From UHGV virus genome UHGV-0140686: a stretch of DNA of 50,702 nt; one strand, 5' to 3'. Below, one piece after another: positions 6,001 to 9,000 of the stretch (positions are counted from its first letter, which is position 1; each line of letters starts with the position of its first letter). Position numbers: made by a program. This stretch comes from a virus.

Positions 6001-9000
6001 CTGAGACATAGAAATTCCTTATTAACTGATGAGCGAAGTGGTATCAGTGAATTTGTTGGTGCGGATCACTGAGCCGCTTTAAGCTTTCCATCCACCGTGC
6101 CGGTGATGCCGAACAGCTGACCCTGATCTTCCTGCAGGATGGTGAGCTTGCCGCCTTTGTTGACCCACATAGGTGTTTCGGTGGTGTCCTCTTCGGACGC
6201 TTTGCCGCGTGGGGTAGGGGTGCTGTAATTCAGGCGATGCTTAATCTTGACGCGCTTCTCTTCAACGGAGTTGCCCATACGCTCAAAATCAAAGGTGAGG
6301 ACTACCTTGCCTTTATTGCCGTTGTTCAGAACGCCGAGCGCGGTGGTATTGAGAGCCGCCGCAATCTTATTCATGAACACGCCGGCATCGAGCTCGCCCA
6401 GGAAATCGGGCACGACTGTCATGCGATCATTACTCATGGTTTTTTACCCTCATGAAAGGCGGCTGCAACCGCCGGAATTTTCTCCATACACAACACAGAA
6501 GAGCATCTGCGGTTAGCAGCCGCCCGGGTGGATTGGGTTATGAGCCCGTCGCCCGGTGATGCTCTTTTGTCTTGTGTAAAAAGGGCGGTTACCCATCAGA
6601 ACGTTATCCTCTTCCTCCTTTGGGTAGTGGAAAACTGGATAACCGCCAAGACTACACACAGCACAGTTAACTAGGTTGTGGCGGTGGTGCCTCCACCTGC
6701 CGGGTTAAGCCATAACCGGAGGCGTACACTGCCCAGAAACGCATTCATTGAACGGTTTGGCTCGCTGGGTGCGCATAGCCGCAATTACCACAACGAAGAG
6801 GGCACTGCCGGTGTCCGAATCGAACGGACCTTTTCCCTGCCCATCACCAGATATCGAACTATCCTGGCGTCTGGAATCGAACCAGACTCTGTGCCTTGCT
6901 CGTCAGAGCCCTCATCGTTGTGCGCTGTGGTGGCGGGAGTCGAACCCGCATAACGTCCGGCCGGACCGCATGAGATAACCTGTGTTGCGAACATTGGTTA
7001 GTGCTCAACTCCCCATACGAGGGGCGCTCTATCCATTTGAGCTACACCACAACGGTAAGAGCACTGCCGCCACCCCTTGCGGGATAACCCGTCTGTCTGC
7101 CTGGCGGTAGGGCGTTTCCTGGCATCTTCAGTGCTCTTTCCTGTTGTGTCCCGAACGAACTCTTCCCGGGTGTCACACCTTTTCGCCGCGCTGGTGGGGC
7201 GCACGTCGTGCCTGAAACACTTAGCTTGCACATTTCCGGTTGTCCTGTGAGCGCATGGATAAAGGGAACTCTCAGGCCGCTGACGCTGCATGTGCCATAC
7301 AACGGTTGCGAATATTGCCGTTCACAACTGGAAGCGCACTCCTTCAGTGACAAACCAGTCCCCACGACCGATGGAAGATGGAATGCGCTTTCATGTTGGG
7401 TACGATTCATCTACCCCGGTCCGGCGGCGCCACCTCGCCGGGGCAGATGCAAAGGACCGTTACGCGATCATTCGGCTTGTTGGTATGGCCGGAAGTATCA
7501 AGTCCCGACATCGCGGATTCTGCTTCTCCGCCCCGATTTCACCCCCGCTATTGTTTAGCGCGCAAACCGAGAAAATCGCCTTCAACGCTGTCGGCTTTCG
7601 CCATGTTCGTTCAGGTATCTTCGGGCGGGGTGCTAAGGTGGTGATGAGCCCTTGTCCTTAACACTCCTACTGGTTTTCGGCATTCCTGGCTTGGGTATCG
7701 CCACCAGTTGTAGGAATTTTACTATGAGTTGCGGTTAATCAGGCCGCACCTCTGTTACCCCTCCCGAAGACACCTGCCACTTTATGTGCCTGCTTTTCAC
7801 CACATCAGGCGAGGTGGATCCTGGTTATTCCCCAACAACAAGGATTCGGTTAATCTGGATATCCCCAACAACGAAGAGGTGTTGCTATGAGTGTTATTAG
7901 CGAAGAATTTTTCCAGAAAATTCTTAATAATCTTTCCGAACTACACGGTATAGCAGTGTTTGGTTCAGTTACTGAACCCGGCTATTCCCAGGTCAAAAAT
8001 CGTGCTTCACTCGTATTTGCACTTGAAGTCCTACTTGAGCGACATCGTGAAAAACACGGAACCTTATGGAGCCCGTTACCCGGAAAACTCGCTTTGTTGC
8101 ACTTGATCCTTCAAAAGTACAAATGGCCATTATCTGAAATAAAGGCTTTGACCCTGCAGGAGTCCGTATTCCTCCTTCAGGAAGAATTAAAATTTGAAAA
8201 CCTTCCGGATCTGGCTCAACGTGTTCTCAAAAATTATTTAGCTGACCGAGCTGAACACTACTTCGCTGAAATACGAGAGGAAGAGTGGGATCCAGATCTG
8301 TATCTCACAATTCCAAAGCCGCAGCGATGGTGAGTTCGTCAATGAGTTGATCGACCACTTCGATTGACTGCTTAAGAGCTTCTCTTTCGGCGATTGCGGT
8401 TTTAAGCCGATGTGATGCACTAATTTTCCGTTCCATCCAGGAGATGACCTCTTCCTCGGTGCTGCTAGGAGCAATGATTTTTGGTTCAGTTGCCTTCATA
8501 AGGCCTCCATTCAGTTGGTTAACGTGTTGGGGCATCCAGATTGTTAAAGAGCTAAGCGTCCTACGGGGCGCTTTTTTCATACCTGCGAATCATCCCGGCC
8601 TTCGTATGCCCCGGGCGGCTACTTCGTGGGCGTCCTGCCTGTTCGCTGTTGATGGATTAATAATACAGATAAAACTGTTAATTCGTCAACAGTCAAAACT
8701 GTATTGAGTGGGGGTGTTTACTTGAAAAACTGTAATTTATTGTTTTTTATGAAACTAAAGACGTAAAAAAACCGGCGCTAGCCGGTTCATGTGAGGAAGG
8801 ATTTACCTTTTTCGCCTGTAAATTCTATGTTCGACCATTACGCCGATAATTTTCAACGGGCATTCAGAGCTATTGATGGTGGGGTAGTCGTCATTAAGGG
8901 GGACCAGTTCATATTGCTGGCGGCCTGAAATATCGGTAAATGTAGGACGGTACTTTTTAAAAGTTGCCTCATTATCACCATTTTTAGCAACAACAAACTC

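Follow-up and report, generated by a model that had tools for sequence, protein, structure and literature searches.

A modular array of structured, partly tRNA-like RNAs in the early-left leader of a lambdoid prophage

Some stable RNAs copy the elbow or acceptor of transfer RNA (tRNA), among them YrlA, a Y RNA of bacteria, and the small stable RNAs C and D, which belong to the tRNA cluster of phage T4. Their genes lie next to those for tRNAs or for RNA repair, and the enzymes of tRNA maturation act on them. The c4 antisense RNA of phages P1 and P7 is a phage regulatory RNA that is freed from its precursor by RNase P and whose loops set its specificity. For DicF, RNase E and RNase III excise the RNA from a longer precursor, or termination sets its end (PMC5069750). 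The present analysis concerns UHGV virus genome UHGV-0140686 (the window, 50 702 nucleotides in its full length), a complete lambdoid prophage, and within it the block at 6440..7880, which precedes the first leftward early gene. The minus strand of this block, in the sense of the early promoter pL, was found to be tiled by about nine structured modules in the order X, Y, A, Z, B, C, D, F, E. With moderate confidence, the block is read as a non-coding, tRNA-operon-like RNA island that is transcribed leftward from pL upon loss of the repressor and yields small RNAs (sRNAs) acting in trans. The array is akin to known kinds of RNA, namely the sRNAs of prophage early operons, tRNA-like RNAs and phage tRNA clusters, and there is a real chance that its organisation as an array of cassettes is a new category. 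No description of it was found in Rfam 15 or in the open-access literature, in which six core sequences from the modules had no verbatim match.

Like dicBF and DicF, the block is non-coding RNA within the early operon that adjoins the immunity region of a lambdoid prophage. The likeness to DicF extends to a similar terminator hairpin (UUGGCGGUAnCAGUUU...CCGCCCUUUUU), a U-tail and a place in the untranslated part of that operon. The corresponding element of the window nevertheless scored 16.2 bits with the DicF model (RF00039; gathering threshold 48), DicF was not matched at its gathering threshold in ten related loci, and the single-stranded 'seed' is GCUGUGUGUAGUCUU in the window but UUUCUGGUGACGUU in DicF. 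In the K-12 prophage Qin, an unannotated A-type cassette with a 20-bp stem (UAACGCGAAAGCGCAUGG...CCGUGCGCUUCCGGUUG) lies at 1649175..1649254 of NC_000913.3 (3676..3755 of locus L227), about 128 nucleotides (nt) upstream of dicF in the 'long untranslated region' between ydfC and dicF. This single cassette is all that Qin has; its untranslated region shows no BLAST similarity to the block, and no tRNA-like or T-arm module was seen there by eye. Rfam gave no Y RNA or YrlA match in the block to E 10; YrlA is circularly permuted relative to tRNA whereas module C is not, and the T4 RNAs are likened to the block by description only. The C4 model likewise found no match in the block, but the C4 family is common in these prophages. 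In Stx2a phage 1447 (locus L001), for example, isrK (6427..6503, 67 bits) and a C4 antisense RNA [6528..6615(+), 83.6 bits] lie on the pR side of the immunity region as additional unannotated RNAs of the same phage group. The Pas sRNAs and the anti-sRNAs of enterohaemorrhagic E. coli were considered and rejected, both being late-region (PR') elements.

Covariation and strand of the modules

Homologues were taken from 80 IMG/VR loci with 98–100% identical yfdP, from 28 loci retrieved with a pattern for C and more than 120 with a pattern for D, and from GenBank phages and E. coli genomes, giving more than 200 phage loci in all. As a control the pairing partners were slid; a shuffle test (500 shuffles) was run for C and D, while X, Y, Z, F and E were judged against slid partners. 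Over the modules, 96–99% of alignment cells were paired. X, Y, Z, F and E (11–37 distinct homologues each) reached 98–99%, compared with 23–63% for slid partners: X gave 99.2% in 23 distinct homologues (40–48% slid), Y 98.0% in 11 (33–46% slid), Z 98.0% in 29 and F 98.4% in 22. For C, 19 distinct homologues gave 96.4% (37–53% slid), and for D, with 65 distinct variants, the 26 tested gave 98.1% (36–48% slid); in both cases 0/500 shuffles were as good. All modules but A have compensatory pairs, up to 16 of them (X 5, Y 16, Z 7, F 4, E 4, C 8 and D 16/35). G–U far outnumbered A–C in paired columns (X 80/0, Y 84/2, Z 71/5, F 69/3 and E 78/4), which shows that selection acts on the minus-strand RNA and not on DNA hairpins or the opposite strand; a scar, a pseudogene and repeats maintained only at the level of DNA are thereby excluded. 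The structured RNA proposed in the sequence-only reading was therefore borne out on the minus strand by covariation across homologous prophages, by compensatory pairs and by the G–U bias. The idea offered alongside it, that the block is the scar of an insertion, is contradicted by the compensatory substitutions and by 96–99% pairing over many distinct variants from several genera. In an Infernal search of Rfam 15 (window at gathering threshold, block to E 10) only the tRNA model passed, with 39.8 bits at 6925..7051 on the minus strand; all other models remained below 17 bits with E above 2.

The interval was confirmed over most of its length, the RNA array proper occupying about 6488..7780, but its right-hand end, about 7782..7886, belongs to the upstream region of a moron gene. 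The features are as follows.

7612..7780, minus strand: module X, multi-hairpin, with a long closing stem GGUGUCUUCGGGAGGGGU...ACCCCGCCCGAAGAUACC.
7403..7604, minus strand: module Y, composed of several hairpins, among them a 12-bp stem CAUCUGCCCCGG...CCGGGGUAGAUG.
7323..7400, minus strand: cassette A, closing stem CAACAUGAAAGCGCAUUCC...GGAGUGCGCUUCCAGUUG enclosing a small hairpin.
7150..7305, minus strand: module Z, with a GGCACAUG hairpin, AAUGUGCAAG, a CACCA..GGUGUGAC stem and a CCCGG-GAAGAG-CCGGG hairpin, conserved.
7047..7148, minus strand: cassette B, closing stem CACAACAGGAAAGAGCACUG...CAGUGCUCUUACCGUUGUG, the 3' strand overlapping the 5' acceptor strand of C.
6925..7051, minus strand: module C, tRNA-like RNA, Rfam tRNA model (RF00005).
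6789..6922, minus strand: cassette D, with a 20-bp closing stem; of its three hairpins, 6886..6870 and 6829..6813 are like T arms and have UUCGAUU loops, and 6867..6847 is variable.
6673..6797, minus strand: unit F, closed in the opposite register, acceptor-stem-like, GUUGUGGU...GCCACAAC.
6578..6665, minus strand: DicF-like 3' element, in which the conserved single strand GCUGUGUGUAGUCUU is followed by a terminator hairpin (6647..6584) and U5 (6582..6578).
6488..6577, minus strand: cassette E, closing stem and a long hairpin tipped by CGGGCUCAUAACCC (6548..6535).
7782..7886, plus strand: upstream region and ribosome-binding site of the moron gene 7887..8333, outside the RNA array.

Module Z also occurs in four other loci (L001, L002, L123 and L238). 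The 5' strand of F is the 3' closing strand of D, and F has a compensatory variant, GUUGCGG..CCGCAAC, in L238. The DicF-like element separates F from E, and relatives carry a canonical terminator there (GGCGGUACCAG..CUGGUACCGCCCUUUUU); its position at about 6578 is the likely end of the pL transcript unless this is antiterminated. Since an intrinsic terminator lies inside the block, the block is mostly pre-terminator, immediate-early transcript. The loop of the terminator hairpin (6611..6621) is longer in the window than in its relatives, the insert giving AAGGAGG, a strong likeness of a Shine-Dalgarno sequence, about 13 nt before an AUG which opens a 27-codon open reading frame [ORF; 6515..6598(−)] through the terminator and module E; the relatives are without it, and the AAGGAGG and the ORF are probably fortuitous.

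Cassette E has a nearly invariant core and a covarying closing stem, and was found in 299 of 5426 E. coli genomes. It is the last module before the first gene, whichever type of gene that is (yfdP or rdgC types). A role for E as a cis regulator of the yfdP start codon was rejected, at least four unrelated first genes following it. The segment at 7782..7886 holds two CCCCAACAAC repeats; it is shared between phages as a separate block and accompanies opposite-strand moron genes in other phages. In another locus (L004) it precedes a different opposite-strand ORF, and so looks like a portable cassette of promoter and 5'-untranslated region for morons.

tRNA mimicry and the shared closing stem

Module C is real as a tRNA-like module by its score of 39.8 bits with the Rfam tRNA model (gathering threshold 29), a 66-nt insert replacing the anticodon arm; ARAGORN, which had been suggested as a further check, called no tRNA at C in the window or in the family members tested. 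Across 19 variants C keeps a 7-bp acceptor stem, a D arm with GG in its loop and a T arm (GUUCGA). At the position of the anticodon arm stands a short hairpin with a 4–6-nt loop (UCGUAU, UGAA, AGAU), and there is a long extra arm whose terminal loop, 7 nt long and anticodon-like, reads UUCGCAA in the window, mostly NUCAUAA (CAU) in relatives and AUCGUUA in one of them; the adjoining pair covaries with these loop variants. A further hairpin, H3, has as its stem the palindrome TCCGGCCGGA at 6956..6965, which had been noticed before and was found again. C thus differs from tRNA in lacking a 7-nt anticodon loop at the canonical place and in having two extra arms. No CCA is encoded after its discriminator, G6925, and from its geometry we infer that it would be unable to decode. 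A covariance model built from the family scored C at 140.7 bits as the sole match in the window and retrieved 27 full-length members from 98 sources. One 129-nt homologue, at 2501..2629 of L238 (E. coli CH468 plasmid unnamed5, NZ_JBRBPZ010000006.1), is labelled 'tRNA-Met' by RefSeq/PGAP and is rejected by ARAGORN. Inspection of the window sequence by eye gave no kissing partner for the loop of C, nor was a target identified to which the loops of C or E would be complementary.

Both T-loop hairpins of cassette D that had been described (6886..6870 and 6829..6813) are real, and a third, weaker one lies at 6867..6847. The T-arm-like hairpins (GGUUCGAUUCC type) have a closing pair of the G53–C61 type and a UUCRAUU loop, and D also contains the conserved single strands UGACGAGCAAGGCA, GGGCAGGGAAAAG and ACCGGCA; the hairpins and the GG-rich single strands may, by inference only, imitate the tRNA elbow. 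A hammerhead in D (CUGACGAG...GAAA) was considered, and no Rfam model supports it. In E, the tip CGGGCUCAUAACCC matches 14 nt of the E. coli initiator tRNA-fMet (metZ) without a difference, namely its anticodon stem-loop with the three G–C pairs. Mimicry of tRNA is real and is supported in three modules: in C by the tRNA model and covariation, in D by the T-arm hairpins and in E by the initiator anticodon stem-loop.

Cassettes A, B, D and E are closed by one common stem of about 20 bp, CACAAC-N3-RAGAGCA...UGCUCUY-N3'-GUUGUG, in which N3 and N3' covary. A constrained-folding scan of the window returned exactly four such cassettes, A at 7398..7325, B at 7146..7050, D at 6920..6791 and E at 6574..6491, and the halves of the stem are concentrated in the block, which holds 3/7 of the minus-strand matches to the 5' half and 6/11 of those to the 3' half in the 50.7-kb window. 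In the late region of the window a canonical tRNA-Thr(UGU) [21532..21607(+)] and the sRNA STnc100 [22545..22731(+), 72.3 bits] were detected; no closing-stem cassette lies beside either. Three copies of a motif, C(A/C)ACAACG(A)AGAGG, had been listed in the block. One is exact and lies at 6788..6801, 3 nt from the 6791..6804 first given, and one is the variant CACAACGGTAAGAG at about 7047..7061; these are the 3' halves, in the RNA sense, of the D and B closing stems. The third, at 7866..7879, is exact but lies outside the array, in the ribosome-binding region of the plus-strand gene at 7887.

The strand GUUGUGG serves both as the 3' closing strand of cassettes and as the 5' acceptor strand of C and F, and C ends, on its 3' side, in a sequence (..CCACA-G/A-C) that is similar to the 5' closing strand of a cassette. 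Neighbouring units therefore compete for the same strand. At 7047..7051, 6787..6797 and 6917..6932 on the minus strand GUUGUGG can pair with an upstream CACAAC or a downstream CCACAAC, in mutually exclusive registers. Two other identities of the stem were rejected: a boxA in every stem, since the common GCUCUU core is replaced by GCGCUU in A-type stems and is itself paired; and an integron attC site (..AAC...GTT..), there being no integrase and no ORFs between sites while the interiors are conserved.

Position behind pL and variation between phages

The claim that the block is the leader of the early-left operon, read from pL on the minus strand, was upheld by a promoter match, which also confirmed the earlier placement of pL, and by the position relative to the repressor gene. 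The elements around the block are as follows.

8803..9435, minus strand: repressor gene of the cI/S24 type.
8689..8660, minus strand: pL-like sigma-70 promoter, TTGACG-18-TATTAT, matching 10/12 consensus positions, just downstream of the repressor gene.
8647..8585, minus strand: 62-nt leader, AGCGAACAGGCAGGACGCCCACGAAGUAGCCGCC...GGAUGAUUCGC, at the 5' end of the pL transcript.
8552..8541, minus strand: exact rrn-type boxA, GCUCUUUAACAA, about 100 nt past the pL start and directly 3' of a hairpin at 8573..8554.
6066..6437, minus strand: first leftward protein gene, a YfdP homologue (phrog_204).

The cro gene lies at 9533..9763(+). Between pL and the block are a 64-amino-acid ORF (8305..8499, phrog_1744) and the convergent moron gene [7887..8333(+), phrog_5286]; downstream of the yfdP-like gene follow a yfdQ-like (5182..6009) and a yfdR-like gene (4513..5052). 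In 122/130 loci module D is on the same strand as the cI/S24-type gene and downstream of it, at a median of 748 nt past the repressor stop, and the same placement is seen in Stx2a phage 1447 and in an E. coli F5 prophage.

The leader is nearly invariant in 52 distinct loci despite differing promoters upstream and differing sequence downstream, contains one compensatory stem (CCCGG..CCGGG versus CCGG..CCGG) and occurs only once in the window. The boxA is the sole window match at no more than one mismatch; it is present in 6/54 leader-bearing loci, each time with the hairpin. On the plus strand the hairpin at 8573..8554 is the terminator of the convergent moron gene and folds better on that other strand.

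The composition of the array varies from phage to phage. In total, 148 cassettes (82 distinct) with at least 12 unrelated interior families were found at 79 loci, all with the same closing stem and 0–5 per locus. Near-identical yfdP phages carry different sets of modules; many join position 7143 directly to 6922, B and C being absent, or the leader at 8585 directly to 7779, without the moron segment. The junctions of gain and loss fall at the shared stem. A 107-nt cassette (CAACAGGGAAGAGCACC...GGTGCTCTTCCCTGTTG) in locus L005 is the exact reverse complement (107/107) of that in L010, the yfdP genes being 99% identical, which implies that the DNA was inverted between the inverted repeats of the closing stems. 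At four loci the start of a canonical tRNA-Arg(UCU) falls within GUUG|UGG of the closing stem, the position which C takes after B; three of these are listed.

630..706 of L123: tRNA-Arg(UCU) with encoded CCA, beginning within a cassette 3' closing strand.
8705..8781 of L119: tRNA-Arg(UCU) with encoded CCA, beginning within a cassette 3' closing strand.
6839..6917 of L133: tRNA-Arg(UCU) with encoded CCA, beginning within a cassette 3' closing strand.

A P1-like Cronobacter phage also has the B and C unit, next to loxP. In L238, a P1-like E. coli plasmid of 89 kb, there is an array of about 1.4 kb with an A-type cassette, an F-like unit, a DicF-like terminator and C, and after these a true tRNA(CAU) and Z. 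Directly downstream of this array come a Tad2 anti-Thoeris gene, lpa and pacA. About a fifth of complete E. coli genomes (1213 of 5426) contain parts of the block, and D occurs in genomes of Citrobacter, Edwardsiella, Yersinia, Rouxiella, Izhakiella and Buttiauxella species and of one 'Pseudomonas sp.'. In CPS-53 of K-12, yfdP is present and the array upstream of it is absent. Nearly all copies of the block are unannotated or are called 'hypothetical protein', and one is called 'tRNA-Met'.

Proposed action in trans and alternative explanations

In the proposed scheme pL would fire on derepression and the transcript, starting at about 8653, would run through the leader, boxA, the small ORF, the antisense of the moron and modules X to F. 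RNA polymerase would stop at about 6578 unless modified, giving an RNA of about 2 kb. The closing stems could then be cut by RNase III, to which a stem length of about 20 bp is suited; RNase P would cut at the tRNA-like 5' end, and the DicF-like 3' piece would owe its ends to RNase E and the terminator, as for dicF. The products would be accessory immediate-early factors acting in trans and not a cis antiterminator; most likely they would be tRNA mimics that bind or distract proteins which handle or attack tRNA, together with one base-pairing sRNA in the style of DicF. A role in host takeover or counter-defence is suggested by the variability of the array, its immediate-early timing, the tRNA mimicry, the exchange with real tRNAs and the neighbouring Tad2 gene. 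A narrower form of this proposal is tentative and, as stated, unlikely. In it, Enterobacterales temperate phages would carry interchangeable RNA cassettes that are shuffled by recombination, share one framing stem and are made as the first transcript of all on derepression or infection. Several would copy the elbow, the body or the CAU or initiator anticodon stem-loop of tRNA, and they would serve as decoys for, or inhibit, those host proteins which cut, modify or sense tRNA.

Several points weigh against action in trans. Cassette A shows zero compensatory pairs, and the cassettes are dispensable, many close relatives being without B and C or others. The occurrence of one cassette in both orientations is hard to reconcile with a strand-specific role for its family. 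To our knowledge the CGC in the anticodon-like loop of C matches no E. coli tRNA, and 'mimicry' may misframe this module. Finally, conservation of the closing stem could reflect recombination or gene conversion and not recognition by a nuclease.

The block may alternatively be a cis-acting leader, for antitermination, for protection of a long untranslated RNA from Rho or as a timing delay, with no products acting in trans; this is doubtful. The block does lie between pL and the first gene and contains an intrinsic terminator, an invariant leader and an exact boxA stand upstream of it, its dense pairing should hinder loading of Rho, and the boxA core, GCUCUU, recurs in each closing-stem family's 3' half except in A-type stems. 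These boxA-like cores are, however, buried in stems, and a canonical boxA is present in only 6/54 loci. Insulation needs neither conserved T-loops nor CAU loops, and the cassettes vary in number (0–5), kind and orientation where the flanking genes are 98–99% identical, while the same modules sit among tRNA genes in P1-like plasmids with no pL nearby. The suggestion that the block itself antiterminates, in the place where lambda has N and nutL, is not supported, for these last two reasons: variability, and occurrence away from pL, make the block a poor candidate.

Better candidates for an N/nutL-like antitermination function are the leader and boxA, which sit just past pL, where signals such as HK022 put or lambda nut are expected; both are outside 6440..7880, and the block itself is not at the put position. 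The put RNA of HK022 forms two stem-loops in about 70 nt just past pL. By its position and near-invariance the leader is a possible put-like element that might modify RNA polymerase. Its fold is not better than that of shuffled sequences (z = +0.63), and in BLAST neither the leader nor the block was similar to HK022 putL, extracted from NC_002166 with a published primer. Nor is there a lambda-type nut site: no boxB-type hairpin follows boxA, the single hairpin beside it standing on its 5' side, and the ORFs of the window yielded no N-like gene, PHROGs and Pfam searches included.

An origin as selfish DNA, in which cassettes resembling miniature inverted-repeat transposable elements gather in a permissive intergenic site and their folding is a by-product, is improbable. 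Units of 60–180 bp with common inverted-repeat ends and unrelated interiors, variable in copy number, with one exact inversion and with insertion and deletion junctions at the repeat, are what such elements would give. The excess of G–U over A–C nevertheless signifies strand-specific selection on RNA, the interiors have their own covarying helices and invariant loops, and the orientation to transcription is nearly always constant; no target-site duplication is visible at the flanks of the window cassettes and no transposase is associated with them. Slightly less probable still is a decaying cluster of phage tRNA genes, made up of remnants and spacers without present function. It would explain the tRNA-like module and T-arm hairpins, the real tRNA-Arg or tRNA(CAU) genes in related arrays and the 'tRNA-Met' label given by PGAP to a homologue of C, but in decay pairing should be lost, yet it stands at 96–99% with many compensatory changes across genera. 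The parts of C that are foreign to tRNA (the short hairpin, the long arm and H3) are themselves conserved and covarying, and X, Y and Z have no resemblance to tRNA.

An unrecognised or frameshifted protein-coding region is very improbable: ORFs within 6440..7880 do reach 123 amino acids, and in some E. coli genomes module E is covered by a RefSeq 'hypothetical protein', but these ORFs overlap one another on both strands and matched no PHROGs or Pfam family, and homologues differ by loop insertions and deletions of 1–6 nt with substitutions that keep base pairs and not codons. The flanking genes do match PHROGs (phrog_204 on the left and phrog_5286 on the right), and the earlier statement that the block holds no credible ORF agrees with the overlap of the ORFs and the absence of PHROG and Pfam matches within it.

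The array adds at least eight modules with compensatory pairs, ready for curation as families, in the earliest and most strongly transcribed region of temperate phages, a kind of region which gene callers and tRNA finders mishandle. The shared stem with its two registers, together with the inversion, suggests a route for the exchange of RNA modules between phages. If the modules act in trans, they would add to phage accessory factors a class made of RNA, and would give a context for DicF, whose surrounding 'long untranslated region' remains unexplained. Should the decoy proposal be true, the array would be the RNA counterpart of protein anti-defence islands, directed for example against anti-phage nucleases that target tRNA.

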